IMG/VR virus record: IMGVR_UViG_3300037473_000190
Span: 1-46,401 of that record
Origin: a virus
Direction: 5' to 3' (one strand)
DNA length: 46,401 nt
A model generated the notes under the pieces. It ran no database searches, was not told the origin of the DNA, and saw nothing but the letters and a program-made list of their open reading frames with translations. A program made the position numbers and the translations under genes. Position 1 is the first letter of the stretch, and each line of letters begins with the position of its first letter. This document shows positions 5,980 through 24,391 of the stretch, piece after piece.

Positions 5980-7518
5980 TTAGACGCTCCTCGTTCTGCG
6001 TTCGACTTCGAGCGCCACCATTTCAGCGGTGCCGCGCGGGTCCTGCGATTCGAAGACGTTGATTTTGATGTTGCGAGGCGCCATGGACTTGATCGCGTCG
6101 AAGAACTTCCCGATCGGGGACACGATCTCGTTCGGGTGAATGATCGCCGGAATGCCGGTCTCGCCCATGGGCCCCGTCGTCATGACCCCGTTTGCGGCCG
6201 AAAGGAGCCCCGCCCGGGCCGATACGCCGCCCGCCCGCATGGACACGCCGCCCTGGGACAGGAACGGCAAGCCAAAGCCGCCCCCGGCCGCTTTCAAGGC
6301 CATGAAGACCATCCACTTTGCGATCATCTCGCCGATCGCCTTGAGGACCGCCATTTTCATGTCCTCCCACAAACCCTTGATCGCGTCGCCGAAGCTCTTG
6401 CCGTGACCGATCATCTCCGCGAAGGCGCTGCCGAAGCTCGTCGTGAAAGTCGTCATCGAGACTTTCCAAACGTTTTGAATGCTCTGCGCCATGTCCAGAA
6501 AATCTTTATTGAACTTCTTGATGTCCTCGCCTGCGCGGCCGATGTCGCCCTTGTAAAAATTTTCGGGCGCGCGCATCTGGGCGTCTTCCGCGCCCATGTT
6601 GGAAAGAGAATTTTTGTTGTCGAAGAACTGCGGCGGCTTCTTTTCGGGGACGCTCGCCTCCTGCCCGCCTTCGGGAAGCCCGAGCGACCGCATGAAATTC
6701 GCCCGGCCCGAATTCTCGACGGGCCCCTTCTCCGCGCCGAACATGAGGGCTTCGAGCTGATCCTTGAGTGCTGCGAGCTTATCGAAATTCCCCTTCCACT
6801 CGGTGATCATGTTGTTGAGCGACAATGCCGACAACGTCATGAACCCGGACGCAAAGCCCTTCCACGCGTCCTTCGCCTTGTCCGCGCGGGCGGCGAACTG
6901 GTCGAGCCCCTTGTTCATGCCGAGCTTCTTCGCTTGATCGTCAAGGTTCTTGAGCTCCTGCGACCCCGCGCGGAAGAAGTTCGCGTTCTCCACGAACGAC
7001 CGCCCGAGCAGCTTCTGCCCGATCGCCATGACGGCCGCCTCGTCCTTCATGCCGCGAAGCCGGTCCGACACTTCCTTCATGACGTCGTTGTAATGCCGGA
7101 GCGATCCGTCGGTGTTGCGGATCTCGATGCCGAGCTGGTTGAAAAGGTGCTGCGCTTCCTTGTTCCCGGTCGAGGCCTCGAACATGTTCCGCGAGAGGGT
7201 GCGGAACCCGGTGATGATGCCTTCCATGGATGAATCGGTCTGCTCGGCGGCGAACTTGAGGCGGGCGATTTCCTGCGCGGCGAGGCCCGTCGTCTTCGAA
7301 AGGCGGTTCAACTCGTCGCCGTAATTCACGGCCGACGTGATGACCTTCGTGAACCCGGCGGCGAGAGCGAAGAAGCTCACGCCGCCGAGGATGTCGTCCA
7401 TTTTTCCGGCAAACCCCTGGACGCTCGATTCGGACTTCTGCAGCTCTTTGTTGAGCTCCGTCGAGTCCGCGCCGATTCTTACGACGAGCCGTCCGAGATC
7501 TCCGACACCCATGACCAT
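5980..7518 (-). CDS. Tail tape measure protein (512 aa)
   Basis: The N-terminal region (GDELNRLSKTTGLAAQEIARLKFAAEQTDSSMEGIITGFRTLSRNM...) resembles the TP901-type tape-measure core. There are Gly- and Met-rich hydrophobic stretches. It follows the G/GT chaperone pair. Confidence 0.85.
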   Translation of the reverse strand: MVMGVGDLGRLVVRIGADSTELNKELQKSESSVQGFAGKMDDILGGVSFFALAAGFTKVITSAVNYGDELNRLSKTTGLAAQEIARLKFAAEQTDSSMEGIITGFRTLSRNMFEASTGNKEAQHLFNQLGIEIRNTDGSLRHYNDVMKEVSDRLRGMKDEAAVMAIGQKLLGRSFVENANFFRAGSQELKNLDDQAKKLGMNKGLDQFAARADKAKDAWKGFASGFMTLSALSLNNMITEWKGNFDKLAALKDQLEALMFGAEKGPVENSGRANFMRSLGLPEGGQEASVPEKKPPQFFDNKNSLSNMGAEDAQMRAPENFYKGDIGRAGEDIKKFNKDFLDMAQSIQNVWKVSMTTFTTSFGSAFAEMIGHGKSFGDAIKGLWEDMKMAVLKAIGEMIAKWMVFMALKAAGGGFGLPFLSQGGVSMRAGGVSARAGLLSAANGVMTTGPMGETGIPAIIHPNEIVSPIGKFFDAIKSMAPRNIKINVFESQDPRGTAEMVALEVERRTRSV

Positions 7519-8116
7519 TAGACCGCGTCCTCCATGATGCCCAACCCTTTAAGGATCTCCGCGCCGCCGTCCTCGATCGTCACGACCGTCGGTCTCGTCC
7601 AACCGTTCGCGATCGCCCACACGAGCTTGGCCTGGTCCTCGAGGCGGTCGAACTGCGCCGCCTGCAGGTGACGGTGCATGAGCATGACCTCTTGATAGCT
7701 CATGGACTTCGCGACCTGCCGCGGCGACCTGCCTGTCGCCGCCGCGACCTCTGAGACGATTCGCGGGAGCGTTACGCCTTTTGATCGAACATGCTGTTGA
7801 GGCGACGCACCCTTTGCAATAAAAAATCGAGGCCGTTCTGCTTCCACACCTTCGTGAAAGCTTCGACGATCTCGACGAGCACGGACTTCGTGCGGATCTC
7901 CTGCTCATCGATGCCCGTCGCCTTGGCGCACACGCGCACCATGACGTCGAACATCGGCTTCATGCCCTTCTCGTTCGCGGCCGCGACGTAGATGTCGACG
8001 ACCTCGATCTGAGCGTCCATGGACATTTGCTCGACCCGGATCTCCCGGCCTGCGAGCTTCACGTCCACGGGCTGCCCCATGATGACTTCCATTTCGGACT
8101 CGCTGTTGCTTTTCAT
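7518..8116 (-). CDS. Tail assembly chaperone G-T fusion made by a -1 programmed frameshift at 7820..7826
   Basis: ORF 7518..7847 is in the -1 frame relative to 7772..8116 and overlaps it. It has no SD or start of its own downstream of the slip site. This is the conserved siphovirus arrangement. Confidence 0.7.
7772..8116 (-). CDS. Tail assembly chaperone (gpG-like)
   Basis: 114-aa ORF between the major tail protein and the tape measure. It contains the slippery heptamer near its 3' end. Confidence 0.75.
   Translation of the reverse strand: MKSNSESEMEVIMGQPVDVKLAGREIRVEQMSMDAQIEVVDIYVAAANEKGMKPMFDVMVRVCAKATGIDEQEIRTKSVLVEIVEAFTKVWKQNGLDFLLQRVRRLNSMFDQKA
7820..7826 (-). promoter_or_regulatory. 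-1 ribosomal frameshift slippery heptamer T TTT TTA
   Basis: The minus strand reads GAT TTT TTA TTG in the G frame. After a -1 slip it reads TTT TTT ATT GCA, which is the frame of ORF 7518..7847 (…RFFIAKG…). Confidence 0.75.
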
Positions 8117-8145: not shown

Positions 8146-8700
8146 TTAGACCCGCGTGCGGATGATCTTGCAGAGCTTCTGCCCGTTCGAAAGCGTGGCA
8201 CCGGCCCAGTCCGTCGAGGCGTTCGGGTCGATCGCTTTGAACTTGTACGGAAACTCATGCGTGTCTTCGGCCTTCACACCGACCGCGATCGTGCCTTCGC
8301 CGATCACCTTGAAGATGTGCAGATCGATCGTCGATCCGTCGGCGGCGATGTGGACGAACCGCAGCGCGCGCTTGTTGACCGTCGGCTTCCCGCCCATGCG
8401 GAAAATCTCGTCCGCGCCGGACACGGACGTCGAACCGTCTCCGATCACGTACGCGAGCATGTCGAGGTTCCACTCGATGCCGTTGATCTCGAACATGAGA
8501 TCCTCGGCCTTCACGAGCGCGTCGATGATCGTCTGCGGCGAACCCTGCCGCACTTCCACCTGCTCACGCTTGAACGTGATCGCCGCGTCGCCTTTGACGT
8601 AACCGACCTCGATCGCGGGCGTCGAACCGGCGGCGCCCAAGTACAGGCGACCGGGTCCGATCGAGACGCGCGTGAAATCCCCCGAAGGGTTGTTATACAT
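8146..8700 (-). CDS. Major tail (tube) protein
   Basis: 184 aa, immediately upstream of the chaperone pair, with a beta-rich composition. No sheath gene is nearby. Confidence 0.7.
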   Translation of the reverse strand: MYNNPSGDFTRVSIGPGRLYLGAAGSTPAIEVGYVKGDAAITFKREQVEVRQGSPQTIIDALVKAEDLMFEINGIEWNLDMLAYVIGDGSTSVSGADEIFRMGGKPTVNKRALRFVHIAADGSTIDLHIFKVIGEGTIAVGVKAEDTHEFPYKFKAIDPNASTDWAGATLSNGQKLCKIIRTRV

Positions 8701-8709
8701 GATTCACTC

Positions 8710-9018
8710 CTATCCTTTTATGCTGCCTTCTTCAAACGGCGGTCGTCGCAGCCACCGAACGAACTTCGCTTCGACAATGTTCACGATGCCCTTCACACTC
8801 GCGGCTTCTGCCGGATTCGCCGCTTCGAACTTCTCGTCGCAGCAGTAATTCGGCGCGCCACACCCGCGGCAGATGATCGTAACGATCCCGCCGCGAACGT
8901 AAAAATAAGTGTCCTTGTTCTTCACCATGATCTCGGCGCGGTCCGTCATGGCGATGATGAAATTGCACTTGCCGCACACGATCTTGAAAAGCTCCTGCTC
9001 CTTCGCTTCGGTCTTCAT
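8710..9018 (-). CDS. Small zinc-ribbon protein (102 aa, CxxC...CxxC)
   Basis: ATG at 9018 (MKTEAKEQ) forms an ATGA overlap with the upstream stop. Cys pairs: CGKC and CRGC, followed by CC. Confidence 0.6.
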   Translation of the reverse strand: MKTEAKEQELFKIVCGKCNFIIAMTDRAEIMVKNKDTYFYVRGGIVTIICRGCGAPNYCCDEKFEAANPAEAASVKGIVNIVEAKFVRWLRRPPFEEGSIKG

Positions 9019-9473
9019 ATCGCTGCGCGCACCCTCCACCTTGACGGATAATGTAGCACGCCGTCGGCCGTCTCGTACATCTGCGGGCCCTCGAGCGTGT
9101 TCGTGATCTCGAATATCTTGATGCCGATCGTGTTGTCCCACCCGCCGTTCCGGTGAAGCTCGTTCGAAATGGCCTGCTGCACTTCCATGACGTCGTCCCA
9201 CGTCGCACCGTCCTTGCCGCCCTGCCCGGCCCCCTTCATCCAGATGTCGATCTGAAGCGAAAGCGTGGTCATGCCGCCCTCGGTCACCGCGCGCGCGCCC
9301 GAGGACACCATGATCGAGATCGCCGGGAAAGCCGCGTCGACCACCGTCGAGATGTGCGCGCCGTAGATCCTGGCATTCGCACCCGACCCGACCCGCGACG
9401 TGATGTCGGAAACGGTCTTAAGCTTCGCGATGATCTTCTCGATGACCCGCGCCGCGACCGATGCCGTGCTCAC
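9015..9473 (-). CDS. Tail completion / tail terminator-like protein (DUF3168-like)
   Basis: GTG at 9473 forms a GTGA overlap with the upstream stop. It sits between the gp10-like and tail tube genes. The pattern ARIYGAHI...FPAISIMVSSG...LSLQIDIW resembles tail completion proteins. Confidence 0.55.
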   Translation of the reverse strand: MSTASVAARVIEKIIAKLKTVSDITSRVGSGANARIYGAHISTVVDAAFPAISIMVSSGARAVTEGGMTTLSLQIDIWMKGAGQGGKDGATWDDVMEVQQAISNELHRNGGWDNTIGIKIFEITNTLEGPQMYETADGVLHYPSRWRVRAAI

Positions 9474-9976
9474 AACTTCACCTTTTCGCCGTTGAAGCTC
9501 ACGATCGTGTTCTTCATCGATGCCCGCAGAAGGTCGAACGCCTGCTCCCGGCACTCCTCGAGCGAGCCCGTGAGGAAGTCGCGCGGGATCATCTTCGACG
9601 TCCCGAGGATGACGAACAGCGCGTGGTCGACGCTCTCCGAAACCCCGACGTACGCCTCGGCCGTGAGCTTGCCGCCGCCCGTCACCGTCGCGTCCTCCGT
9701 GCCGGAGAACTTCGACGCGAGCAGCTCCCCGCTCTGCGTGTGGACGGCGTACTGCGGGTCATGGATCGCCTGCGGCGCGCGCCGGGCGTACGGATGCCCG
9801 AGCGCCGCAAGGTCATCGAGCGAATGATCGCCGAGAGAGATCCTCGACATGACCTTCGAATCGAGGAGTGAAGCGACCTTCCGCATGTCGCGGTTCACGC
9901 CTTCGAGGAAACGGCGCTGCACGGCGCGCATGTTCCGCGCGACCGTTTCCCCGCCGATGACCGAGGCGCGCGCCAT
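9470..9976 (-). CDS. HK97 gp10-like head-tail joining (head closure) protein
   Basis: 168 aa. The motif ILGTSKMIPRDFL resembles the GT..M.aRPfl signature of HK97 gp10 family proteins. Confidence 0.65.
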   Translation of the reverse strand: MARASVIGGETVARNMRAVQRRFLEGVNRDMRKVASLLDSKVMSRISLGDHSLDDLAALGHPYARRAPQAIHDPQYAVHTQSGELLASKFSGTEDATVTGGGKLTAEAYVGVSESVDHALFVILGTSKMIPRDFLTGSLEECREQAFDLLRASMKNTIVSFNGEKVKL

Positions 9977-12382
9977 TTAGCCGACCTTCTTCATGCCGAA
10001 CTCGAATTTATTGAGCATGTCCAGGATCTCGTTGATCTTGTTGTTCTTTTTGTATGACTCCGGGATGTCCTGCATCGCGCCCGCGAGGAGCTTCTTCGCC
10101 TCGTTCAGGTGATGAAACCCGAGGTTCTGCTTTGAACGCCAGAACGCCGGGTCGAGCTCGAGCGTCTTCTTGTAGCACTCTATGCCCTTCTCGGTGTCGC
10201 CGTCGTTAAGGTAATGCAGTGCCATGTTGAAAAGCGGCCGCGGGTCCTTCTCGCCCGAGATCGCGAACTGCCGCATGTTGATCTTCTCGTAGCGGTTGAT
10301 CTTCTCGCGCACGCGGTCCTGCGTCTTGAGATAGCCCCGATGATGCAGCGCGACCGGGGATTGAACGACGTAACCCCGATGCGCCCGGCAGCGTGCGGCG
10401 ATCGATTCCTCGAGCGATTCGTGGACGAGGCCCGAGTAAAAGATTTCGGGAATGTTCCGGTAAAGCCGGATCGTCTCCGAGATCGAGTACTCGTTTTCCT
10501 GCGGCTTGTTGGACTTCGGCATCGAGAGATAATTGATGACGGAAAAAAGGAACCCGTCGCACTCCTCGTCGATGAAGTTGAACAGCTTGTGGACGTCCTC
10601 CTGCATGAAAAGCTCGTCGCAGTCCATGTTGAGAATCCACGCGCCGCGGCATTGCATCTTCGCCCAGTTCTTCGCCTCGGAGTAATTGAGCAGCCGGCCG
10701 TTTTCGTCGACGTCGAACTTCTTCTCGAAGATCCTCACCTTGCGGTTAAAAAGCCGCCCGAAGCGGATCACCTCGTCGATCGTGTGGTCCGTCGACCCGG
10801 TGTCCACGATGACGATCTCGTCGGCGATCGGCTCGATGTTCGTGAGCATCTGCCCGATGAGCTCCTCCTCGTCCTTGCACACCACCATGACGGAGATGTC
10901 GTTCTTCTCGCGGTAATTCTTCACCGTGACGTTCTTGTCGATGAGGTGATGATAATCCTCGTTGCCTACGTCAGCCCGAACAGGGCGCGGATCCGCATTT
11001 CGATAGAACTCATATTTGCGCTTTCTCTGCGCCTCGGTGTCGTACCCCAGATGCTTGACCCGGATGTTGAGCCACGATACGTTTTCCGGGGGAATCGACG
11101 GCGCACTCCCGCAATGATGGTTATACACGTTTGAATTTTCCCGGATCCGCATGCCGGGAAGTACTCGGAAGAACCGGCAATTCTGGAACCCTCCGAAAAT
11201 TCCGTCAGCACGATATTTCTCGACACCGTTTTCTTCCTCCCAGATCGTGCGCCAGAAGTACGAATAGCCCATGATCTGCGGGTTCTTCGGACGGATGAGC
11301 TCGGGCGCCATGTTGACGAACTTGTCCTCGTACACCTCGTCGCCGTCGATCGAGATGATCCAGTCCGCGCCGCGCGCGATCGCCGCCTGCAGGAGCCAGT
11401 CCCGCTCGGCCTGCTCGTCGAACGGGTGCGCGTCTTCGTGCCACTCCTCCCAGAACTTCACCTTCGGGAACGACAGCGCGATCTCTTTCGTGCGGTCCTT
11501 CGACCGGGCGAAAAGGCAGATGATCTCGTCCGCGAACTTCGACGTCTGCTCGAGCGACTTCGCGATGTACGCCTCGCAGTTGGCGATGCGGTAGACCGCG
11601 ATGAGCTTCGGCTTCTCGGCGGCCGCCCACTTCGCGTAAAAGAGCTCCTGGTTCTTGCGGCCGTTCAAGAGGTAGTCGCTGTAAAATTTGTCCTTCATGG
11701 ACGCCTTGAAACTGCGCTGCCCGATGTGGTAAATGTACGTCCCGAAGTCAATGAAAATCCGAAGCCCTTTCGTACGCGCGCGCATGCAAAGGTCGTTGTC
11801 CTCGAATGCGTTCACGAACTGCGGGTCGAACGCGTACTCCTCGCCTTCGAGGAATTCGCGCGACACGAACATGCACCACCCGAACACGAGGCCCGCCTCC
11901 TGGTACTTCCCGGCATTGGCGCGCGTCCACTCGAGCGCCGCCTCGTCGAAATTGCGGCCGTTTCGGATGTCGCCGACCATTTGACGGCCTGCGGAATTCG
12001 ATCCGCACGGCCCGACGATCGCGATCTTCTCGTCGTGGCGCATGCAGATGTCGAGCATCTCGATCCACTTCGCCGTGACGATCGTGTCCGAATTGAGGAA
12101 CACGATGCGCTCGCCCTCCGCGAGCTCGACGCCCTGGTTGTTCGCGGGCCCGAAGTTGCGGTTGTCGGGGTTCTCGATGAGCTTGACGTTCTTGTGCCGC
12201 GCGGCAAGCTCTCTCAAATACCCGACGCTCCCGTCGGTCGATCCGTTGTCGACCACGATGAGCTCGAAGTTTTCCGTGTTACGAAACACCGAGTCCACGC
12301 ACCGGGCCGTGTCTTCGATCGTGTTGAAGCTCACCACGATCACCGAAGCTTTTACGCCTTCTCTCTGAGGCATGAGTCGCAT
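9977..12382 (-). CDS. Multidomain glycosyltransferase: three tandem GT2-like domains plus a C-terminal TPR-like region (801 aa)
   Basis: Domain 1 (aa 12-230): SVIVVSFN...VVDNGSTDGS...FLNSDT. Domain 2 (aa 258-460, divergent): IAVYRIAN...ISIDGDEV...VKHLGY. Domain 3 (aa 495-690): SVMVVCKDEE...IVDTGSTDHT...NMDCDELF...LHHRGY. TPR-like tail: ALHYLNDGDTEKGIECYKKTLELDPAFWRS. Confidence 0.8.
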   Translation of the reverse strand: MRLMPQREGVKASVIVVSFNTIEDTARCVDSVFRNTENFELIVVDNGSTDGSVGYLRELAARHKNVKLIENPDNRNFGPANNQGVELAEGERIVFLNSDTIVTAKWIEMLDICMRHDEKIAIVGPCGSNSAGRQMVGDIRNGRNFDEAALEWTRANAGKYQEAGLVFGWCMFVSREFLEGEEYAFDPQFVNAFEDNDLCMRARTKGLRIFIDFGTYIYHIGQRSFKASMKDKFYSDYLLNGRKNQELFYAKWAAAEKPKLIAVYRIANCEAYIAKSLEQTSKFADEIICLFARSKDRTKEIALSFPKVKFWEEWHEDAHPFDEQAERDWLLQAAIARGADWIISIDGDEVYEDKFVNMAPELIRPKNPQIMGYSYFWRTIWEEENGVEKYRADGIFGGFQNCRFFRVLPGMRIRENSNVYNHHCGSAPSIPPENVSWLNIRVKHLGYDTEAQRKRKYEFYRNADPRPVRADVGNEDYHHLIDKNVTVKNYREKNDISVMVVCKDEEELIGQMLTNIEPIADEIVIVDTGSTDHTIDEVIRFGRLFNRKVRIFEKKFDVDENGRLLNYSEAKNWAKMQCRGAWILNMDCDELFMQEDVHKLFNFIDEECDGFLFSVINYLSMPKSNKPQENEYSISETIRLYRNIPEIFYSGLVHESLEESIAARCRAHRGYVVQSPVALHHRGYLKTQDRVREKINRYEKINMRQFAISGEKDPRPLFNMALHYLNDGDTEKGIECYKKTLELDPAFWRSKQNLGFHHLNEAKKLLAGAMQDIPESYKKNNKINEILDMLNKFEFGMKKVG

Positions 12383-12384
12383 GA

Positions 12385-12891
12385 TTATAAATTCTCCTGT
12401 TTTTTTTCCGCTATTCCCACGCAGTCGTCCGCGTAGCTGAAAATCTCGAGCTCACGAAGTCCCGCGTCTTCGATCAAAACCCGCATGCCGTCATCCAGAA
12501 TTCGCCAACAGTCAAGCGGGCAAAGCTCCCCCTTATGAACGAAAAAACTCCACGGCGCGATGAGACAGATGATGCCGCCCGGCTTAAGCACGCGCGCGAT
12601 CTCTTTCACCGTGTTCCACGGACGCCTGCAGTGCTCGAGCGTCTGCCCCGAGATCACGACGTCGAACTCGGCGTCCTTGAACGGAAAAACGTCTTCCTTG
12701 TTCGACACCACGTCGACGCCTTCGCCGGGCGCCGCATCGAGTCCGACATGCTCCGTCACCACGCCGTTGAAAATATGCCGATACGACCCGTTGATGTCCT
12801 GGCTCCCGACGTCAAGAAGCCGCTTCCCGGCGAGCCGGTCCGCGTATTTATTCTTGAATTCGGCCATGAGCTTTAAGCTGTCCGGGTGCAT
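12385..12891 (-). CDS. Class I SAM-dependent methyltransferase (168 aa)
   Basis: ATG at 12891 (MHPDSL) overlaps the upstream TAA by 1 nt (TAATG). Motif I is RLLDVGSQD; the post-I acidic residue and the later motif VLKPGGIICL are also present. Confidence 0.75.
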   Translation of the reverse strand: MHPDSLKLMAEFKNKYADRLAGKRLLDVGSQDINGSYRHIFNGVVTEHVGLDAAPGEGVDVVSNKEDVFPFKDAEFDVVISGQTLEHCRRPWNTVKEIARVLKPGGIICLIAPWSFFVHKGELCPLDCWRILDDGMRVLIEDAGLRELEIFSYADDCVGIAEKKQENL

Positions 12892-13259
12892 TATGCGACC
12901 TTCTCCACAAGCGCCTCGATGTGATGTGTGTTGCCGTCGAAGTCGAACATCGGCTCGACCTCCGTAACGCGGCCGAGCGTGAGCCCGACGATCACCGACA
13001 CCGGATAAAGAAGATCGCCGACCTGCACGTCTTCGTTGTACCTGGCGAACATCCGGTAATCGCCGTACTTGAAATCTCCGGGCTCTTTTCTTTTCTGCAG
13101 CCCCGAGATCGTTTCCCAGTAGCACGACATGGCGGCCGCGATGACGGTCTCGCCAGTCCACCGCCGGTCCCCCATGGCCGTGGCCGTGTATCCGGTGCGC
13201 CGCGCCACCTTGACGGTGTGGTTCAGAATGAGGCGAAACTCGTCCTCAAACCTCGGCAC
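12891..13259 (-). CDS. Head-tail adaptor-like small structural protein (122 aa)
   Basis: GTG at 13259 lies 6 nt after an AGGAGG SD. Size and position between connector-type genes fit an adaptor. No enzymatic motifs were seen. The longer track ORF upstream is R/S-rich shadow. Confidence 0.45.
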   Translation of the reverse strand: MPRFEDEFRLILNHTVKVARRTGYTATAMGDRRWTGETVIAAAMSCYWETISGLQKRKEPGDFKYGDYRMFARYNEDVQVGDLLYPVSVIVGLTLGRVTEVEPMFDFDGNTHHIEALVEKVA

Positions 13260-14319
13260 CCTGCGCCTCCTGGGGTTCCATGTTGAGCAGGTCGAGTCCG
13301 TTCTCGACCGCGAGCTTCTGGTAAAGCTCGGAATACCGCCGCGACATTTCGCGCTCGGTGAAATGCGCGAGCACGTGCTCCTGCCCGCGCTGCGCGAACT
13401 CCTCGCGGATCGACGGCCTCTCGCGCAGATAGATCGCGCGCGCGGCGAGCTGCTCGACGTCGTGTTCCTTGACGAGCATCGCGTTCCCGAGGAGCAGCTC
13501 CCGCGTGACCGCGTTCTCCCACGTGAGCACCGCCACGCCGGACGCGGCCGCCTCGAGCAGCACGAGCCCGAAGCCCTCCGTCGCCGACGGATACATGAAA
13601 AGGTCCATGGCTGAATACACGGTGCGCGCGTCGTCCGTCTCTCCGGTGAAAACGACGTTCTTGAGCGGGAACGATGCCGCCATGACCTTGATCTTGCCGA
13701 GATACCCCTTCGCGTTCGAGGCCTCCCCGCCACCGATCAGGATCCACGTGTCCGGGTGCTGCTGCTGGATGATCCAACACGCCGCGAGGAACTGCTCCAC
13801 GCCCTTGTCGTACCCGAGGCGCCCCATGCGCCCGATGACGTACGCGTCGCGCGGGATGCCGAGCTTTTCCTTGTAATCGGCCGGCGTCATGTCTTCCGGC
13901 GTCTCGAGACGATCGACGTCGACGCCGTTATAGATCGTCGTGCATTTCCGGTTCATCTTCGAAACGACGCACGACACGCCGATGCGCTGCCACACGAACT
14001 TTTCGCGGACGGCCGACACGATCGGCGAATGCACGGTCTCGACGGTGCAGATCGATCCCTGCACGCTCGTCGCGATGTTGGACGGCTCGCCGCCAGTGTG
14101 CACGTGGATGATGTCCATGACGAGGTTGTGCTCGGTCTTCTTGTCTTCGACGAACACTTTCGCCCCCGCCGCCTCGAGAAGCGGCCGCATCGGGCCGTCT
14201 TTGTAGGTGTAGACGGAATGCTCGTTCGCCTTGTCGTGCTTCACGATCCCCAGAACGACGCGCTCCGCGCCGCCCATGTCGAGCTGATTCAGTTCGTGTA
14301 AGACCCTCATCGGCCTCAT
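13246..14319 (-). CDS. GT4-family (GT-B fold, Glycos_transf_1) glycosyltransferase
   Basis: C-terminal signature: YSAMDLFMYPSATEGFGLVLLEAAASGVAVL. The N-terminal part is GT-B-like (LNQLDMGGAERVV). The preferred start at 14319 lies 7 nt after GGAGG and forms an ATGA overlap with the upstream stop. Confidence 0.8.
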   Translation of the reverse strand: MRPMRVLHELNQLDMGGAERVVLGIVKHDKANEHSVYTYKDGPMRPLLEAAGAKVFVEDKKTEHNLVMDIIHVHTGGEPSNIATSVQGSICTVETVHSPIVSAVREKFVWQRIGVSCVVSKMNRKCTTIYNGVDVDRLETPEDMTPADYKEKLGIPRDAYVIGRMGRLGYDKGVEQFLAACWIIQQQHPDTWILIGGGEASNAKGYLGKIKVMAASFPLKNVVFTGETDDARTVYSAMDLFMYPSATEGFGLVLLEAAASGVAVLTWENAVTRELLLGNAMLVKEHDVEQLAARAIYLRERPSIREEFAQRGQEHVLAHFTEREMSRRYSELYQKLAVENGLDLLNMEPQEAQGAEV

Positions 14320-14891
14320 TCGCATGCCTCCTTGTTGACGTACACCGCACCGAACCCCGCATCGCCGTGAACGGGGAGACTGATCTTCGGATGCCCCGGA
14401 TTAAAGCTCGTCCAGAACTCCCGCATTCTTTCGTTCAAAGAAATGTCGTCGAAAAAAACGATCGCGCGCCGCGCGAGCTTCGGATACCACGCCTGGAACT
14501 CCATGAGCGGCTGCAGTCCGTTGTGCTCGGTGTCGATGAAAAGAAGCTCGATCCCCTTGTGCTCCGTCGGCTTCAAGCTGTCGCCGAGAAGATACGTCAC
14601 GTTCGGGCGGCGCGTCTTTTCGTACACCTGGTCCCCGATGTCGATCGTCACCACCTGCCCGGACGGATTGCCCTCCGCGAGGCACATCGAAGACGTCCCG
14701 CGCCACGTGCCGAGCTCCACCATGAGCGACGGACGGAAGCGATCGGCGATGAGGTACAGAAAGCGGTAATACGCCGAGCTCCAGTTCTCGTCGACCTTAA
14801 GCCATTCCGGCACCGCAAGCGAGGCCGATTCCTGCGCGATGCTCTCGATGAGGTGCTGCACGCTCATTTTCGGATCGTCCCCCAGAATCAT
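14316..14891 (-). CDS. Class I SAM-dependent methyltransferase, O-methyltransferase / CmcI-like (191 aa)
   Basis: ATG at 14891 forms an ATGA overlap. Motif I is MVELGTWRGTSS. VVTIDI and LLFIDTEHN are typical of sugar O-methyltransferase-like enzymes. Confidence 0.65.
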   Translation of the reverse strand: MILGDDPKMSVQHLIESIAQESASLAVPEWLKVDENWSSAYYRFLYLIADRFRPSLMVELGTWRGTSSMCLAEGNPSGQVVTIDIGDQVYEKTRRPNVTYLLGDSLKPTEHKGIELLFIDTEHNGLQPLMEFQAWYPKLARRAIVFFDDISLNERMREFWTSFNPGHPKISLPVHGDAGFGAVYVNKEACE

Positions 14892-15604
14892 CCGAGCCTG
14901 CTTACTTCTGCCGCCGACAGCTGATCTTTCACGGAAACCCCCTCGCATTTTAGTCCGATGAACGGCGTGATCGACACGACGTCCGCTCCGTAAACTTCCT
15001 TCACGCGCGCGCGGACCGCCGAGAGCTCTCGGACGTTCCGCACGAACGCGTCGTTCATGTGAAGCCGCCACGCCTCGATCGACCCCGACGCCTGCATCTG
15101 CGGGATCTCCGCGCGGTTGAAGTACTCCCCGAAATTCACCTTGCCCTCGATCGCCGCGCAGTCCACGCCGATGAGGAAAATCGTCTTGGCGCCCAGGTGT
15201 GCCGCGAGGTTCACGGCCGCGACCGAGATCGTGTTCCCGAGGCAAAGCCGGTCATCGCTGCCGAGGTCCTCGAGGTTCTTCTCGAAGTCGAAAACCTTCC
15301 CGGTGCCGAACACGAAATAATCTTCCGGCGTCTCGACGTCGTTCGGCGTGCCGCCGCCTTCATGCAGGTCGAGGGCCGACACGACGCATTTCAGCCCCTG
15401 CCCGCGCGCGCGGGTAAACGTGTCGGCGTGGGTGCAGATCATGAAATCCGCGCGAACCCACTTCCACACGTCGTTCATCGCGATGACCTTCTTTCCTTCG
15501 AGGAACCCGAGGCCGCGGAACCTGTCGACGCTCGAGCCCGAGCCCACGACGTACACGTCCTCGCCCTTCCAGATTCCCTTAAGGTCCGCGATGCTCTTTT
15601 TCAT
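14888..15604 (-). CDS. DUF115 / MptE-like domain protein (Maf-type putative glycosyltransferase)
   Basis: GEDVYVVGSGSSVDRF...KKVIAMNDV...ADFMICTHAD and GNTISVAAVNLAAHLGAKTIFLIGVDCA match the two conserved blocks of the DUF115 family as I recall them. Confidence 0.65.
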   Translation of the reverse strand: MKKSIADLKGIWKGEDVYVVGSGSSVDRFRGLGFLEGKKVIAMNDVWKWVRADFMICTHADTFTRARGQGLKCVVSALDLHEGGGTPNDVETPEDYFVFGTGKVFDFEKNLEDLGSDDRLCLGNTISVAAVNLAAHLGAKTIFLIGVDCAAIEGKVNFGEYFNRAEIPQMQASGSIEAWRLHMNDAFVRNVRELSAVRARVKEVYGADVVSITPFIGLKCEGVSVKDQLSAAEVSRLG

Positions 15605-16158
15605 CGGTCACCGTGTCCTTCGTGGACGTTCTCGTACGACCCGCCGACGAGCTGCCGGATCTTTCTGAACTCGATGACGAAAACCTCTTTCACGTGCGGC
15701 TTCACGACGCCGTGATCGTGCTCGATCGAGGAGCCGTTGAGCTGCCATGCGTGCGTGAGCTCGCCGTTCCAGTAGCTTCCGACCGGGACCGTGATGATGA
15801 CCTGCTTCGACGCGACGCGAAAAAGCTCCGCGAGCCCTTTGCCCGGGTTCGGCAGGTGCTCGAGGATCTCCGCACCGATCACCGTGTCGAACTCGCCGTC
15901 GGCGTACGGCAGCGCGTTGATGTCCGCGTTGACCGCCTCGATGCCGAACGTCTGCAGGGCCGCGTCGCGCGCTTCCTTGCGGTTGTCGACGGCCACGACC
16001 TCGAGGCCTTTTTCGATGAGCGCCTTCGCGACGAACCCCTCGTTGCACCCGACCTCGAGGACGCGCGGCCCCTCGGCCCGGTTCACGATCTCCTGCACAC
16101 GCGCGCGCACTACCGGGACGGTGCAGTGCGGGAAGTCGTACCACTTGTCGAGCGGCAT
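15601..16158 (-). CDS. Class I SAM-dependent methyltransferase (185 aa)
   Basis: Motif I is RVLEVGCNEG, followed by VVAVDN and DTVIGAEILEHLPNP (Methyltransf_11-like). Confidence 0.75.
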   Translation of the reverse strand: MPLDKWYDFPHCTVPVVRARVQEIVNRAEGPRVLEVGCNEGFVAKALIEKGLEVVAVDNRKEARDAALQTFGIEAVNADINALPYADGEFDTVIGAEILEHLPNPGKGLAELFRVASKQVIITVPVGSYWNGELTHAWQLNGSSIEHDHGVVKPHVKEVFVIEFRKIRQLVGGSYENVHEGHGDR

Positions 16159-16530
16159 TTATGCCTCGCCTCGAATGTCTTCGCGGTCCTGCAGCGCGCG
16201 CTCGTCGGCGGGCCCGAACGTCTGCTCCGCGACCGTGTCCCAGGGCACTTGACCGAGCTCGAGCAGCATCTTGGCACCTTCGCGCAGTTCCTTCGCGATC
16301 GACCGCGTGTCCTCGGCGTACTTCCCGGCCGACTTGTACTTCGCGAGCAACGCCTTCGAATGCGAGATCGCAAGCAGCGCGTTCGCGGCCGCGATCTTCA
16401 CGTCGTTGTCGTACAAATTGAGCAGTGCCGTGATTTCTTCGTCGGAGAAAAGAGCGTTCGAGCTGTCGGTGTCGCGGATCAGAAGCCGCACCTGTCCGAT
16501 GCTCGTCGTAAGCACATACGTGAAACTCAT
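16159..16530 (-). CDS. gp6-like head-tail connector protein
   Basis: 123 aa, the first gene after the major capsid gene. The N-terminal pattern IGQVRLLIRDTDSSNALFSDEEITALLNLY resembles the Phage_connect_1 family. GGAGGG SD present. Confidence 0.6.
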   Translation of the reverse strand: MSFTYVLTTSIGQVRLLIRDTDSSNALFSDEEITALLNLYDNDVKIAAANALLAISHSKALLAKYKSAGKYAEDTRSIAKELREGAKMLLELGQVPWDTVAEQTFGPADERALQDREDIRGEA

Positions 16531-16543
16531 GCCGCCCTCCTTA

Positions 16544-16592
16544 TAAAAAAATTCGCGGTGAGGCGGGGCGTTTCAAACCCCTCCCCACCGCG
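16544..16592 (-). terminator. Intrinsic terminator downstream of the major capsid gene
   Basis: Minus-strand RNA: CGCGGUGGGGAGGGG-loop-CCCCGCCUCACCGCG, a 15-bp stem with one G.U and one mismatch, followed by AAUUUUUUUAU. The next SD starts right after it, so read-through must occur. Confidence 0.75.
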
Positions 16593-16614
16593 AAACGAAA
16601 ACGCTTGCGGAACC

Positions 16615-17598
16615 TTACGAGCCGCCTTTGAAGATCGCCTGGTAGAACGCAGGCGAAATTCCCCAGTCCATGCGGCACTTGTACTCGATGTCGTCGTACG
16701 CGTAACCCCACTGATCGTCGCCGCCGCCCAACTTCTGGGCGGGAGGCGCCATGAGCAGCGCGGGTTCCGTCTGTCCTTCGAGCATCGTCACTTCGATCGC
16801 GTGCAGATCCTGCGGGTCCGCGAACAGATACCACCTGTTCGGGAACGCCGTAAGATACGGCTCCACGACGAGCGTGAGCCCGCCGGAAAGCGCGGGCGAC
16901 AAGAGCGGGTTCGAGTTCGGACCGTCGGTCGAGCCGCGCGCGATGGCCGTCGAATTGAGCAGCCATTGGGCGACGTCGGCCTTCGCGGGCGAAACGACGA
17001 GGTACTTCGCGCGCATGCCGAGGATCTCCGAGGTGTGGGGATCCGTGGCCGTCGCGATGACCTTCATGCCGTTCTGCACCGCCGCGATGCCGGTGACGTC
17101 GGCCGTCAGAGCGTCGGACGAGCTGTTCGCCGCGCGGATCAGCGACGAACCGTCGTACGCGTTCGGATTCGACTCGAGCACTTCGCAAACCTTCTTTGCG
17201 ATCGTGCGACCCGCGGCGCGGCCGAGTTTCGTCGGGACGTCCTGAAACGCGTTCAGGTCATCGTTGATGACCGTCTCGCGAAGCAGGTTGAACGTCTCGC
17301 CGAAAGTCTCGAGCGCGATCGAGTAGCCGTAGTCCTTCATCGTGCCGCTCTGGTACGGACCGCCGGGCAGCCGCTTCTTGAGATCCTGGATCTCAGAAAG
17401 CCACTTCCGGTTGTGCGACTTGAAGTCGTCGACCGTCGTCGATTTGCAGAACAGATTCCACGAGGACGGCCAGCCCTTGAATGCCTTGATGAGCATCTTG
17501 TGCTGAACGTCGGCCATGATGTTCGGGAAATCGGACGGCGAACCGCTTTCGCGGAGCTCCGACCAAATCTTGAGAAGCGAACCTTTTTTAAATCGCAT
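16615..17598 (-). CDS. Major capsid protein (327 aa)
   Basis: It follows the scaffold and decoration genes, as in lambda-like head modules. ATG at 17598 lies 8 nt after GAGGGGG. It is flanked by a consensus promoter upstream of the unit and a terminator downstream. Confidence 0.75.
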   Translation of the reverse strand: MRFKKGSLLKIWSELRESGSPSDFPNIMADVQHKMLIKAFKGWPSSWNLFCKSTTVDDFKSHNRKWLSEIQDLKKRLPGGPYQSGTMKDYGYSIALETFGETFNLLRETVINDDLNAFQDVPTKLGRAAGRTIAKKVCEVLESNPNAYDGSSLIRAANSSSDALTADVTGIAAVQNGMKVIATATDPHTSEILGMRAKYLVVSPAKADVAQWLLNSTAIARGSTDGPNSNPLLSPALSGGLTLVVEPYLTAFPNRWYLFADPQDLHAIEVTMLEGQTEPALLMAPPAQKLGGGDDQWGYAYDDIEYKCRMDWGISPAFYQAIFKGGS

Positions 17599-17695
17599 GA
17601 ATATCACCCCCTCTCTCATTCGTTGATCTTTTGCGCGCTTATCCGTCCGCGCTCGGGTTCGCTTATGAAACTAATTTTTTCTTTGGAACGAATTC

Positions 17696-18058
17696 TTACT
17701 GCGCGTTGCCTGCCGCCGCACGCGGGAAGCCCACGTTCAAGCGGAGCAGATAGACCTGGTTCGTCGAGTCGAGCGTGTCGACGATCTGCGCGACCTCGAG
17801 ATCCTTCGCCGCAGCACCCAGGGACAGGAGCGAGTTCGTCCGGTCCCAGTACAGGAAGCAACCCGCCGCGAGCGTCCCGCCAATGGCGAGAGTGTGCGCG
17901 ACGAGGCCTTCCATGATGAACGCGACCGTCTGGTTCGCCACGGCGTGAGCCACGGGGATACCGGCGATCAGGTTCTGCACGGTGAAGGTTCCCGAAGAAA
18001 CGGGCGCCGCGGGCTTGACGTCCACGCGACGGCCGAGCGGGTTTTTCAGGTTCAGCAT
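17696..18058 (-). CDS. DUF2190-like head decoration / cement protein
   Basis: 120 aa, between scaffold and capsid genes. The pattern ...AGCFLYWDRTN...VYLLRLNVG resembles DUF2190 proteins (aG..vYWD...v.v.L). Confidence 0.55.
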   Translation of the reverse strand: MLNLKNPLGRRVDVKPAAPVSSGTFTVQNLIAGIPVAHAVANQTVAFIMEGLVAHTLAIGGTLAAGCFLYWDRTNSLLSLGAAAKDLEVAQIVDTLDSTNQVYLLRLNVGFPRAAAGNAQ

Positions 18059-18158: not shown

Positions 18159-19700
18159 TTATTCCTTGTCTTTTTCCTTCACGGGCGCGACGCCCATGCG
18201 GTCTTCGAGGGCGGCGACGCTCTCGGTGACCACGGTCTCGTCCTTCTTGCCGCCGCCGATGCCGACCTTCTTGCCGGACAGCTTCGCGACGTACTCGAGC
18301 TCCTTCGTGATCGATTCCTTCACGACGGTCTCGAGCTCCGCGTCGTCCTTGAACACGCGGCCCTTCAAGCTCTCGCAGAGGCGCACCTGCGCTTCGTCGG
18401 GCAGCTTCGATTCGCTGATGAGCTTCGCGGTCTTCGCGATCTGGATCTTGGCCTTCTCGGCGATCTTCATGTCTTCGATCTCTTTCACGAGCGGCGCCGT
18501 GGCTTCCTTAACGGCCGCGTCCTTCTCGGCCTTGAAGCTTTCGCGCAGCTCTCCGGTGATCGTCGCGCGCAGCTCGGTCTCGAGCGTACGCACGAGTTCG
18601 CCGCAACCCTCGCGCAGTTCTTTGAGCGTTTTGAACATGGTCTTCTCCTCGTTAATTTTCCCGGATTCGAGCAGGTACTCGACCCGGCCTCTCGCGCCCG
18701 GCTCCGTCACCCAGTCGACGGAACGCGGATTCACGATGGCCTCGATCACTTCCATTTGCTGGCCGTCGATTTCTTTGAATCCACGCTTGCCCGACGCGTT
18801 GATGCTCAAGCCGATGCTTTCTCTGAACACGGGGTCTTTCATCTTCATCCAGAGATAATCGTCATGGATGTGAATGCGCCCCATCGCTTTTCCTTCTTCG
18901 TACCAACTCTCGACGATCGTCGAGACCCAGTCCTTGATCGACCGCTCGGGTTTCTCCGCGTCTTCGCGCGCCGTCGGGTGATCGATGTAATTTTTGAGCT
19001 GCGCAAAAAGCGGCGCGGCCTCTTGAATGGTCTTCTTCGGGTAATGGCGCTTCTTGGAATAGTTCGTGCCCGCCTCGATGAGGACAGCCACGACCTCGCG
19101 CTTCTCCTCGTTGAACGTCGCCTCGCGGACCGAGATCTTCTCGACGCCTTCCTCGACCTCGGCGTTCGCGCGTCCGAACGCTTCCTCGCGGCGGCGATGC
19201 TCCGCGCTCTCGCGCGCGATGAACGTCATGTCGACCGGCGTCGGATCGGCGAGCTGGATCTGCCCCGCCTCGTCGCTGTAGTTCATGCGGAAATACTGCC
19301 CCGCGTAATCCACGACGCAGTAATCGGCGAAAACGTAGCACACGTACGCGAGCGAGTCGCCGTATTCGTTCTTCGGGAAGAAAGATGAAAAGTTGACCGC
19401 GTTCTGCAGCCGCAGCGTGATGTCCTGGAACGAACCGACCGGGAGGGATTCCTGCACCTTCGCGACCGCCTTCTCGACGGTCTTCATGTGCTTCTCGAGC
19501 CAGTCGTTCGCGCGCGCCTTGTCGAAACGATCACGGTCGAAGTAGAACGACGCGATCGCGTAACGGCCTTCCTTCGTCTTGACGAGCTTCGCCTTCACGC
19601 CGCCGCCGATCGCGAGCATGCGCTCCGATCCGGACACGGGCCCGGTGACTTCCTGCGCGACAACGAAATTGCCGCCTTCCTGCGTGAATGTGAACCTCAT
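18159..19700 (-). CDS. Scaffolding protein, possibly fused to a prohead protease-like N-terminal region (513 aa)
   Basis: It sits between the portal and capsid genes. The C-terminal 170 aa are strongly charged coiled coil (KELREGCGELVRTLETELRATITGELRESFKAEKDAAVKE...). I could not identify protease catalytic residues. Confidence 0.55.
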   Translation of the reverse strand: MRFTFTQEGGNFVVAQEVTGPVSGSERMLAIGGGVKAKLVKTKEGRYAIASFYFDRDRFDKARANDWLEKHMKTVEKAVAKVQESLPVGSFQDITLRLQNAVNFSSFFPKNEYGDSLAYVCYVFADYCVVDYAGQYFRMNYSDEAGQIQLADPTPVDMTFIARESAEHRRREEAFGRANAEVEEGVEKISVREATFNEEKREVVAVLIEAGTNYSKKRHYPKKTIQEAAPLFAQLKNYIDHPTAREDAEKPERSIKDWVSTIVESWYEEGKAMGRIHIHDDYLWMKMKDPVFRESIGLSINASGKRGFKEIDGQQMEVIEAIVNPRSVDWVTEPGARGRVEYLLESGKINEEKTMFKTLKELREGCGELVRTLETELRATITGELRESFKAEKDAAVKEATAPLVKEIEDMKIAEKAKIQIAKTAKLISESKLPDEAQVRLCESLKGRVFKDDAELETVVKESITKELEYVAKLSGKKVGIGGGKKDETVVTESVAALEDRMGVAPVKEKDKE

Positions 19701-19724
19701 CGATCCCTCCGAAACTTTAGCGAA

Positions 19725-19753
19725 ACTATAGTCGATTCAGCATGCGTTGTCAA
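19725..19753 (-). promoter_or_regulatory. Sigma70-type promoter TTGACA-N17-TATAGT
   Basis: The minus strand reads TTGACA ACGCATGCTGAATCGAC TATAGT. It begins 14 nt after the portal stop and lies about 25 nt upstream of the scaffold start. Confidence 0.7.
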
Positions 19754-19766
19754 ACGCTCACACTTT

Positions 19767-23797: not shown

Positions 23798-24254
23798 TCG
23801 CGCCGTTACCTCCGTTGCCGTTCGTGTGCGGGATCTCTTTGATCGCCCCGTTCTTCGTGAACCCTGCGGCCGTGAGCGCCGCCCGAAGACCGAGCCGGGC
23901 CTGCATGGGCATCTCGCCGATAAGTGCGGGCGTCTGCATGTTGAGCTGCAGGTTATTCTGATTCACGACGATGCCCTGCTGCCGCGGCTTCCACCGCTCC
24001 GGCGCGCGGTTGTAGAGGTATTCCTTCTGGGCCGGGACGTCGCCCTTAATCGCCTCGCGGTACAGTGCGTCCTCGACGATCTCGATGCGCGAAAGCTTCG
24101 CCTCCTCCGCGCGGCCGCGAAGCGGGGGATCGGCCTGCTTCCAGTTCCACCACGTCTTGTAATCGATGCCCGCCGCTTCGACCGCCTTCATCTCGGCGAG
24201 TCCGCTCTCGAGCCCGGCTATAATCTTGGCGGTGACGGCTTCCTTGTCGTACAC
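23754..24254 (-). CDS. terS: Terminase small subunit candidate (166 aa)
   Basis: It is directly upstream of TerL and overlaps it. The N-terminal part is HTH-like (VTAKIIAGLESGLAEMKAVEAAGIDYKTWWNWKQ). The proposed GTG start at 24254 follows GGGGG. The stretch further upstream in the track ORF looks non-coding. Confidence 0.6.
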   Translation of the reverse strand: MYDKEAVTAKIIAGLESGLAEMKAVEAAGIDYKTWWNWKQADPPLRGRAEEAKLSRIEIVEDALYREAIKGDVPAQKEYLYNRAPERWKPRQQGIVVNQNNLQLNMQTPALIGEMPMQARLGLRAALTAAGFTKNGAIKEIPHTNGNGGNGANGNGSGHEGDHSAT

Positions 24255-24391
24255 GGTTACCCCCGCGAGTTGGAATTCTTGGAGAAAGTATACACCCCGA
24301 AACACGAAAAGGGAAGGACGTCGCCTTGGCACCCCTCCCTTTCCCGGCACCCCTTGCGCCGGAAACCACACACCACGTTTGAGATACTTCT

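Follow-up and report, generated by a model that had tools for sequence, protein, structure and literature searches.

The 46,401-nt IMG/VR record IMGVR_UViG_3300037473_000190, analyzed here at its full length (the window, to which all coordinates refer), is the genome of an uncultivated siphovirus in which glycosyltransferase (GT) and methyltransferase genes form an island at positions 9977-16158, among the neck genes that link head and tail. Our analysis indicates that this island probably encodes a system for late, cytoplasmic O-glycosylation of the phage's own virion proteins. At its center is an 801-amino-acid (aa) enzyme, here termed multi-GT, that joins three GT domains to a tetratricopeptide repeat (TPR) region. 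Because of its homology to GmaR and SunS, and of relatives in flagellin loci, we place the conserved heart of this enzyme among cytoplasmic glycosyltransferases whose direct acceptors are polypeptides. We favor modification of virion proteins over seroconversion or DNA modification on the basis of that homology, the coupling of the enzyme genes to structural genes, the absence of membrane protein genes, and the conserved position of the locus. The acceptor is most likely the tail tube protein or the neck protein encoded beside multi-GT, with the capsid and cement proteins as possible additional targets; the tube (8146-8700, minus strand) is our tentative choice as main acceptor. An initial annotation of the window had proposed a methylated oligosaccharide on the virion surface. 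The arguments just listed support that kind of system, and the pattern of inheritance points to the tube and neck as target more than to the capsid.

The 801-aa multi-glycosyltransferase

Multi-GT (9977-12382) is encoded on the minus strand, as are all other genes and domains of the window for which coordinates are given below. It matches the Pfam family Glycos_transf_2 in three stretches (1.3e-48) and carries TPR_1/TPR_2 repeats, in keeping with the earlier reading of this open reading frame (ORF) as a triple GT2-TPR enzyme. Our alignment and profile were built from 38 full-length homologs. Domain 1 (aa 8-255; 11618-12361) is a classical GT2 domain of the sugar-to-sugar type, similar to SpsA and chondroitin synthase (Pfam Glycos_transf_2 and Glyco_tranf_2_3; chondroitin synthase at 1.5e-22 and GalT1 in profile searches of the Protein Data Bank, PDB), and its PHROG matches include GtrB-like O-antigen conversion families. 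Domain 2 (aa 262-490; 10913-11599) is a GmaR-like GT2 domain: GmaR is its sole PDB match (1.4e-5), and the DxD motifs of the two proteins align (DWIISIDGDE in the phage enzyme, DWIVAIDADE in GmaR). Domain 3 (aa 495-700; 10283-10900), a paralog of domain 2 (hhalign probability 98%, E 2e-13), is a GmaR/SunS-like protein glycosyltransferase domain. The best solved relative of the 38-homolog profile is again GmaR (22ao_A, 9.2e-37, profile positions 484-686), and the same profile finds SunS (7msp and 7msn at ~1e-23 over positions 480-731, including the helical region that follows the GT fold, and 7msk at 7e-19). The enzyme is also recognized by the NCBIfam SunS equivalog family (TIGR04195) at 8.5e-13, with 47.9 bits against a cut-off of 350. 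The C-terminal region (aa ~701-801; 9980-10282) has Pfam TPR_1/TPR_2 matches at aa 716-746 and PDB matches to TPR proteins and to the TPRs of OGT, and is presumed to be the module that binds the substrate protein.

All three GT domains are probably active, judging from acidic and histidine residues that are invariant in the alignment: D50, D99 and D195-N-D197 in domain 1; D346, D348, E349, H423 and H444 in domain 2; and D587, D589, E590, H654, E655 and H681 in domain 3. Domain 1 is missing from two-domain versions found in a distant clade (L226 and L227; L numbers designate loci of relatives), which keep both GmaR-like domains and the TPR region. The GmaR-like pair and the TPRs therefore appear to be the indispensable part.

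GmaR, in which a GT domain is followed by TPRs, is an O-linking enzyme that places N-acetylglucosamine on Listeria flagellin (PMC9638930). The phage enzyme resembles GmaR of Listeria monocytogenes in the order of a homologous GT-A domain and TPRs, and the GmaR acceptor is a polymer-forming structural protein that is modified in the cytoplasm. It differs in having two GmaR-like domains together with a classical GT2 domain, in lacking GmaR's linker and anti-repressor domains, and in being encoded among neck and tail genes in a genome without flagellin. The closest cellular relatives with several domains lie in flagellin loci. In Selenomonas ruminantium (L049), fliD and flagellin are followed by GT genes that include one for a GT2-TPR protein. 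Across the 80 cellular loci of a genome contig scan, in which matches were mostly to the generic GT2 domain 1 and which is informative for flagellin context only, flagellin was present at 4 of the 7 loci that have a domain-2-type ORF and at 4 of the 73 that do not (Fisher p = 0.0014).

SunS, a peptide S-glycosyltransferase, glycosylates sublancin, encoded on prophage SPbeta; with ThuS it belongs to the glycocin S-/O-glycosyltransferases. As in SunS and ThuS, a GT2 domain of the phage enzyme is followed by helical repeats (positions 480-731), and SunS is itself phage-borne and acts directly on a peptide. It is possible that multi-GT targets a polypeptide outside the virion, such as a small glycocin-like phage peptide or a protein of the host (flagellin, pilin or a defence factor), and the SunS homology, including the NCBIfam match, is compatible with this, as are small ORFs (61, 74 and 78 aa) in or beside the island in some relatives and the fact that the island's GT4 enzyme passes the Pfam model GT4-conflict. 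We consider a non-virion polypeptide rather unlikely. The small ORFs are unconserved and the window has none; genes for export, a thiol oxidoreductase or immunity are absent; the gene is strictly linked to those for tube and neck, and to no peptide gene; and late timing, shortly before lysis, fits modification of virions. The island differs from SunS/ThuS loci in the same respects, having no precursor peptide, exporter or disulfide machinery, as well as in its genomic context and in a SunS score far below the family cut-off. A glycocin locus was rejected, since the conserved peptide gene and the exporter are both missing.

One homolog of multi-GT, P0072 (1153 aa), carries the Pfam domains PF14528 and PF14890. 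We take these to be LAGLIDADG and intein-splicing domains, which would mean that an intein lies inside that enzyme.

Organization of the island and its other enzymes

Positions 1-127 of the window are identical to positions 46275-46401, indicating a circular, complete assembly with a unique length of 46,274 bp; its GC content is ~60%, and virtually every gene lies on the minus strand. The island occupies 6182 of the 46,274 bp, or 13.4% of the circular genome (about 13% had been estimated), and consists of seven minus-strand ORFs. In transcription order, the gene for p123, a 123-aa putative head-tail adaptor, is followed by four enzyme genes, a gene for a 122-aa structural protein, two further enzyme genes, and then the genes for p168, a gp17-like protein, a 102-aa protein and the tube, so that the 122-aa gene separates the enzyme genes into two slots. 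The junctions are TAAATG, three ATGA overlaps, a 14-nt overlap, TAATG and a 2-nt gap, and in a third-position GC frame plot the switches of frame fall exactly on the ORF boundaries. The ORFs and junctions of the initial annotation were all recovered, and its view that the enzymes are translationally coupled to structural genes is upheld by the single strand, the abutting or overlapping junctions and the lack of any sigma-70-like promoter within the island. Between the capsid gene and p123 (16531-16614, minus strand) lies a terminator-like hairpin (folding energy -38.6 kcal/mol, z = -3.1) and, right after it, a U7 tract, AAUUUUUUU. This element had been described as a leaky capsid terminator; the hairpin and U7 downstream of the capsid gene are present, and we infer that read-through occurs.

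The island also bears on a second alternative, in which the enzymes synthesize or remodel a glycan of the host envelope (lipopolysaccharide, capsule, S-layer or flagellar) and thereby cause seroconversion, superinfection exclusion or a change of receptor. The GtrB-like PHROG matches of domain 1, the resemblance of domain 1 and the GT4 enzyme to polysaccharide GTs, the presence of some homologs on long contigs of metagenome-assembled genomes (MAGs) that are possible prophages, and a set of hypervariable accessory genes that recalls O-antigen loci would all fit such a role. However, no transmembrane segment was detected in any island protein (maximum Kyte-Doolittle 19-residue hydropathy at most 1.62), and the ORFs scanned include no flippase, polymerase, ligase or integrase, and no GtrA or GtrC. 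An integrase/repressor module was not found near the island, the enzyme genes sit among late neck and tail genes, to which they are coupled, and not in a lysogeny or moron locus, and the conserved core is the GmaR/SunS-like pair with its TPRs, not the polysaccharide-type domain. We regard modification of a host glycan as quite unlikely. GtrABC seroconversion clusters share with the island a phage-borne GT2 and the PHROG overlap of domain 1; the island differs from them in lacking membrane proteins and a flippase, and in its position in a late structural operon, away from a lysogeny module. Gtr-type seroconversion as such was rejected for want of membrane proteins.

Homology of the island proteins to GT and methyltransferase families, on which the glycosylation reading had been built, is significant in Pfam (1e-12 to 1e-48), and that of the proposed DUF115 protein, at 33.3 bits, falls just below the cut-off of 34.6. 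The GT4 enzyme (13246-14319), a retaining-type GT of the GT-B fold, matches Glycos_transf_1 at 3.1e-25 and is 38-57% identical to its counterparts in relatives that have this head module. The three S-adenosylmethionine (SAM) methyltransferases were likewise correctly named as such, with Pfam values from 1.4e-12 to 2.4e-15. MT1 (15601-16158), a class I enzyme and the core of the head-side sub-island, matches Methyltransf_11 at 2.4e-15 and has homologs at 48-57% identity in L028, L029, L111, L112, L203, L205 and L209; in NCBIfam it comes closest to MftM, a mycofactocin oligosaccharide methyltransferase (3.8e-15), though with a score well short of the cut-off. MT3 (12385-12891), also class I, matches Methyltransf_11 at 2.1e-13 and phrog_32762 at 4.8e-17, and a distant clade (L220-L225 and L230) repeatedly has a homolog, 38-40% identical, upstream of multi-GT. 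The third methyltransferase (14316-14891), an accessory enzyme whose gene comes and goes and changes slot among relatives, had been called CmcI-like; its assignment as a SAM methyltransferase stands (Methyltransf_24, 1.4e-12), but it is not CmcI itself, and NCBIfam gives a weak match to rhamnosyl O-methyltransferases (0.002). The MftM and rhamnosyl O-methyltransferase matches, both far under the family cut-offs, hint that the sugars may be methylated.

The GT4 enzyme passes the GT4-conflict model with 33.1 bits (cut-off 26). This family has been described for biological-conflict systems.

The remaining enzyme (14888-15604) is a 238-aa accessory protein of the MptE/DUF115 and sialyltransferase fold. 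Its sub-threshold Pfam match to MptE-like (5.2e-8) spans only residues 95-152, it matches phrog_4603, annotated as alpha-2,3-sialyltransferase, at 1.3e-7, and a deep HMMER search recovered 411 relatives. An AlphaFold2 (AF2) model with a pLDDT of 93.5 gave the MptE kinase (8sd5, 6.6e-6) as the best Foldseek match in the PDB, followed by Maf (5mu5, 2.8e-4, query TM-score 0.45) and bacterial and animal sialyltransferases (9c08, 2wml and 1ro8), all at modest TM-scores of 0.41-0.49; many uncharacterized MptE-like proteins of uncultured phages are similar as well. On this modeling the protein is a minimal, single-domain member of the MptE/sialyltransferase fold rather than an orthologue of Maf. The earlier designation as DUF115/Maf-like therefore holds for the fold and not for orthology, given a single 238-aa domain to which the kinase fold is closer. 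The family is like Maf, the GT42 sialyltransferases (Cst-II) and the MptE kinase in fold, and its genes repeatedly adjoin those of cytidine monophosphate (CMP)-sugar synthetases in viral contigs; Maf itself differs in its size (~600-630 aa), its extra domains and its flagellar locus, as opposed to a phage neck context. In the survey of relatives described below, the MptE-like gene is an accessory rather than a core part of the island.

We propose that the MptE-like protein is a transferase that uses a CMP-activated ulosonic or nonulosonic acid, because cytidylyltransferase genes adjoin MptE-like genes in other viral contigs: a PseF-like cytidylyltransferase gene lies near the MptE-like gene in 11 of 80 viral loci, in several of them directly adjacent. 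In the window, a PseF-like cytidylyltransferase (CMP-sugar synthetase; 27971-28654) is encoded outside the island. It matches Pfam CTP_transf_3 at 4.8e-19 and, in NCBIfam, the pseudaminic acid cytidylyltransferase PseF over its full length (1.9e-28, below the cut-off) ahead of KdsB (2e-16); it starts at an ATG at 28654 that has an AGGAGG site and overlaps the upstream stop. That upstream gene (28651-29466) encodes a PhyH-type Fe/2-oxoglutarate dioxygenase (Pfam PhyH, 1.9e-16) and is translationally coupled to the cytidylyltransferase gene through the ATGA junction, the pair lying in the early/replication region. The cytidylyltransferase probably supplies the CMP-sugar donor of the MptE-like enzyme, and the dioxygenase could modify a sugar or hydroxylate the protein acceptor. 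No synthase for a ulosonic or nonulosonic acid was found in the window, and the free sugar would thus have to come from the host. A scan of IMG/VR with the cytidylyltransferase returned no relative.

In five relatives (L117 6658-7593, L119 10702-11646, L122 10638-11591, L123 5660-6586 and L150 5045-5986), a radical SAM/SPASM gene of ~310 aa always follows the MptE-like gene; the copy in the window has no such partner.

The 122-aa protein that splits the island (12891-13259) has no sequence-family match, and its AF2 model (pLDDT 75.7) identifies it as a stopper, or head-closure protein, of the SPP1 gp16 type. The top 11 Foldseek matches in the PDB are all phage neck proteins (TM-scores 0.48-0.56, probability 1.00), among them those of Mycofy1 (9lwa_A, 8e-4), the T1 stopper (9l0e_A), XkdH (3f3b), SPP1 gp16 (7z4w_1) and the Douge connector. 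The gene has a GTG start and an AGGAGG ribosome-binding site and, as for gp16-like stoppers, is encoded between adaptor-position and tail-completion genes. Earlier it had been taken for an adaptor-like structural gene; it is indeed structural and does split the island, but it encodes a stopper and not an adaptor.

Conservation of the island and its co-inheritance with the tail tube

More than 110 full-length homologs of multi-GT, at 37-61% identity and mostly on contigs of 40-50 kb, are present in a large protein database. We compared the genomic contexts of six of these and of eight IMG/VR relatives, the latter found through alignments of the MptE-like and tube families. The common layout is capsid, 123-aa gene, enzymes, stopper, further enzymes ending with multi-GT, 168-aa gene and tube, with enzyme genes in the corresponding slot of L028, L029, L111, L112, L115, L117, L119, L122, L123 and L150. 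Multi-GT, the GT4 enzyme and at least one methyltransferase form a constant core, and the variable genes, which switch slots, encode MptE-like (as a rule together with a radical SAM/SPASM partner), Methyltransf_24, polysaccharide pyruvyl transferase, a second Methyltransf_11 and small ORFs. In distant clades, NAD-dependent epimerase/dehydratases and an RGP (UDP-arabinopyranose-mutase-like) protein are encoded just upstream of multi-GT (L221 1629-2699, L226 2360-3190 and L228 2280-3257). A survey of related contigs for presence or absence of the island, as the initial annotation had suggested, found it in many relatives. Distant relatives that have a homologous major capsid protein and 123-aa gene but no island show a compact neck region, as in L020, where the order is capsid, 134, 139, 133, 152, 287 (tube) and 201 aa, followed by the tape measure. 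Conversely, in relatives with a different head (HK97/SU10-type capsid; L113, L195 and L213), whose head-side slot has neither the GT4 nor the MT1 gene, multi-GT is still followed by the p168 gene and the tube family.

A search of IMG/VR with the tube family yielded 35 loci, of which 32 were informative (at least 4 kb of upstream sequence). A multi-GT gene lies 1.2-2.6 kb upstream of the tube gene, on the same strand, in 31 of these 32, at identities down to 21%. The 184-aa tube protein of the window matches Pfam Phage_TTP_17 at 1.5e-5 (25.3 bits, below the cut-off of 27), and its gene sits immediately upstream of a chaperone pair and the tape measure, with Dit and distal tail proteins beyond; a PDB sequence-profile search with it returned nothing usable. 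Within the tube family T27 and T124 are invariant, T91 is conserved at 92%, and residues 87-99 form a Ser/Thr-dense loop. This co-inheritance points to the block of tail tube and neck genes, more than to the capsid, as the likely target.

It could be argued that the island inserted as a neutral or selfish moron cluster, contributes nothing to the virion and is linked to the tail genes by historical accident. Accessory genes are indeed gained and lost and switch slots, and HNH and intein-like elements occur nearby in relatives. Multi-GT is nevertheless kept from 61% down to 21% identity and across swaps of the head module, with invariant catalytic residues in all three domains, which implies purifying selection for an active enzyme and makes a neutral insertion very unlikely. 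The pattern shows that the neck-tail block has long retained the enzyme in active form.

Several observations weigh against virion glycosylation as we propose it. Upstream of the tube homolog in L231, the most distant of all, there is no GT, and a multi-GT homolog with 33% identity (L196 1209-3554) lies in a chromosomal context with DnaK, DnaJ, sigma-70 and HU and without tube or neck genes; this copy may be domesticated or a prophage remnant. The co-inheritance of GT, tube and neck genes could reflect plain linkage in a vertically inherited block. Domain 1 and the GT4 enzyme resemble ordinary polysaccharide GTs, all NCBIfam matches are far under the family cut-offs, and SunS-type enzymes act on secreted peptides, not on virions. 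The closest solved fold to the MptE-like protein is a kinase, so that a role other than transfer is possible. Finally, a Ser/Thr-rich C-terminal tail like that of mycobacteriophages was looked for on capsid and tube proteins, and none was obvious.

A broader proposal, which we regard as possible but doubtful, is that cytoplasmic glycosylation of the tail tube, and perhaps of other virion proteins, is ancient and near-obligatory in a large uncultivated siphovirus lineage. In that event a dedicated enzyme resembling flagellin glycosyltransferases would be encoded inside the neck-tail block, and the shuffling of accessory genes (methyltransferases, pyruvyl transferase, radical SAM, the CMP-ulosonic acid branch, and sugar epimerases and mutases) would create 'glycan serotypes' comparable to O-antigen diversity. 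The glycan coat could then hide subunits of the tail or capsid from sensors of the host or from binders in the environment.

Proposed pathway and relation to known systems

What the sequences show directly is the gene content, the homologies, the coupling, the conservation and the co-inheritance. In the pathway that we infer, with respect to acceptor, sugars, order of steps and benefit alike, the island genes would be read through from the capsid operon and translated along with the neck genes. The 801-aa enzyme would grip a virion subunit through its C-terminal TPRs, and its two GmaR/SunS-like GT2 domains would place the first sugar or sugars straight onto Ser/Thr side chains. Lengthening of the chain would then fall to the classical GT2 domain at the enzyme's N-terminus and to the free-standing GT4 enzyme, and the three SAM methyltransferases would O-methylate, and perhaps cap, the sugars. 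In this phage, the MptE/sialyltransferase-fold enzyme may add another sugar, probably a ulosonic or nonulosonic acid activated by the phage's PseF-like cytidylyltransferase.

To our knowledge, a handful of actinobacteriophages are the only phages whose virions have been shown to be glycosylated. Virion glycosylation by cassettes of phage GTs and O-methyltransferases is already known in mycobacteriophages. In Cluster O mycobacteriophages, an O-methyltransferase and three GT genes (Corndog gp35-38) lie between portal and protease in the structural operon (PMC4351075). Passages in PMC11600133 and PMC12619734 that draw on Freeman 2023 describe such enzymes as modifying capsid and tail tube, and PMC12619734, citing the same work, places the glycans at subunit C-termini. 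The initial annotation had not recognized the combination of genes in the island as a described system. We likewise found no paper on it, nor any that links GmaR-like or nonulosonic acid enzymes to phage virions, but the Corndog GT and O-methyltransferase cassette is a precedent (PMC4351075). The proposed logic is the same as in the mycobacteriophages (Corndog and the Cluster F1 phage Che8), in that phage GTs and an O-methyltransferase are co-located with structural genes. The slot of the island is between adaptor, stopper and neck genes and not between portal and protease; its core is a three-GT fusion with GmaR/SunS-like domains and TPRs; its accessory set is far richer; and its lineage is uncultivated.

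There is also no detectable sequence relation between the two. Nucleotide and protein searches of 50,697 GenBank phage records revealed no relative of the island DNA, the tube or the MptE-like protein, the island DNA having no match at all, mycobacteriophages included. In the same records the 801-aa enzyme has only weak partial matches, and tblastn searches with it (E < 1e-5), the tube and the MptE-like protein found no mycobacteriophage. In one relative with the HK97/SU10-type head (L195 1-5540), a second sugar cluster (DUF218, a 456-aa double methyltransferase, GT4, HNH and two GT2 genes) is present just upstream of the protease/scaffold and capsid genes, a position that recalls the portal-protease GT and methyltransferase site of Corndog.

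Phage GTs often glucosylate DNA (PMC12619734; bioRxiv 10.1101/2023.12.21.572611), and it is conceivable that the enzymes hypermodify the phage's own DNA with sugars and methyl groups against restriction. This common role of phage GTs, and a DNA N6/N4 methylase encoded elsewhere in the genome, are the points in its favor. The scanned ORFs, however, include no genes for synthesis of 5-hydroxymethylcytosine or 5-hydroxymethyluracil, the genes lie in a neck/tail operon, away from the replication module, the known relatives are TPR-bearing GTs that act on polypeptides, and the methyltransferases are class I enzymes of the small-molecule or sugar type, not DNA methyltransferases. Modification of DNA is extremely improbable in our judgment, and DNA glycosylation was rejected as belonging to the wrong module and the wrong type of enzyme.

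If glycosylation of virion proteins is confirmed, it would be widespread in environmental phages, given more than 100 full-length homologs on phage-sized contigs of 40-50 kb, and would rely on enzymes recruited from flagellin and peptide glycosylation rather than from polysaccharide pathways, diversified through cassette shuffling. The 801-aa enzyme and the 184-aa tube protein would constitute a clonable enzyme-substrate pair, and the multi-GT gene would be a marker for spotting glycosylated phages in metagenomes. The enzymes might also serve to glycosylate proteins at chosen sites or to shield therapeutic phages with glycans.

The structural genes around the island are arranged as follows. 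Small terminase (23754-24371), large terminase (22106-23797), portal (19767-22109) and protease/scaffold (18159-19700) precede two alternative acceptors: the cement or decoration protein (17696-18058; Pfam Phage_cement_2, 5.2e-8), which in a clade at ~40% identity has a Ser/Thr-rich patch near its C-terminus, and the major capsid protein (16615-17619; Phage_capsid_4, 8.6e-41). Then comes p123 (16159-16530), which directly follows the capsid gene in relatives both with and without the island; its PHROG matches are to families of unknown function only, a PDB profile search gave just spurious helical-repeat matches, and its role as adaptor is putative, being assigned by position only. Downstream of the island, p168 (9470-9976) is a putative neck or tail-completion protein (phrog_5, tail completion/Neck1, 3e-5; no match in a PDB sequence-profile search) whose homolog comes after multi-GT in most loci. 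The roles of p168 and of the tube are assigned from PHROG or sub-threshold Pfam matches together with position. Next are p152 (9015-9473), a tail completion protein resembling SPP1 gp17 (Tail_completion_gp17, 1.7e-4; 22.2 bits, below the cut-off of 24.5), and a small, zinc-ribbon-like protein of 102 aa (8710-9018) with a weak zinc-finger match, whose homologs bear a CxxCG motif.

Four further observations concern the tail genes. In the window, an ORF in a second frame (7518-7847) overlaps that of the tail assembly chaperone (7772-8116), a typical layout for a programmed frameshift before the tape measure. In L028 (19250-20872), a 540-aa tail protein with a Laminin_G_3 domain ends in a second gp17-like copy, 49-50% identical to p152, as its C-terminal domain. 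In L029, a contig from a 'Candidatus Omnitrophica' MAG, a tail protein (18906-19826) has an mtd_2nd domain like that of the major tropism determinant, which hints at a target of a diversity-generating retroelement. In L195 (13805-14987), the tube gene is split, residues 2-31 and 30-183 being separated by ~640 nt that hold an ORF of 150 aa, as would be expected if an intron or another mobile element had inserted there.

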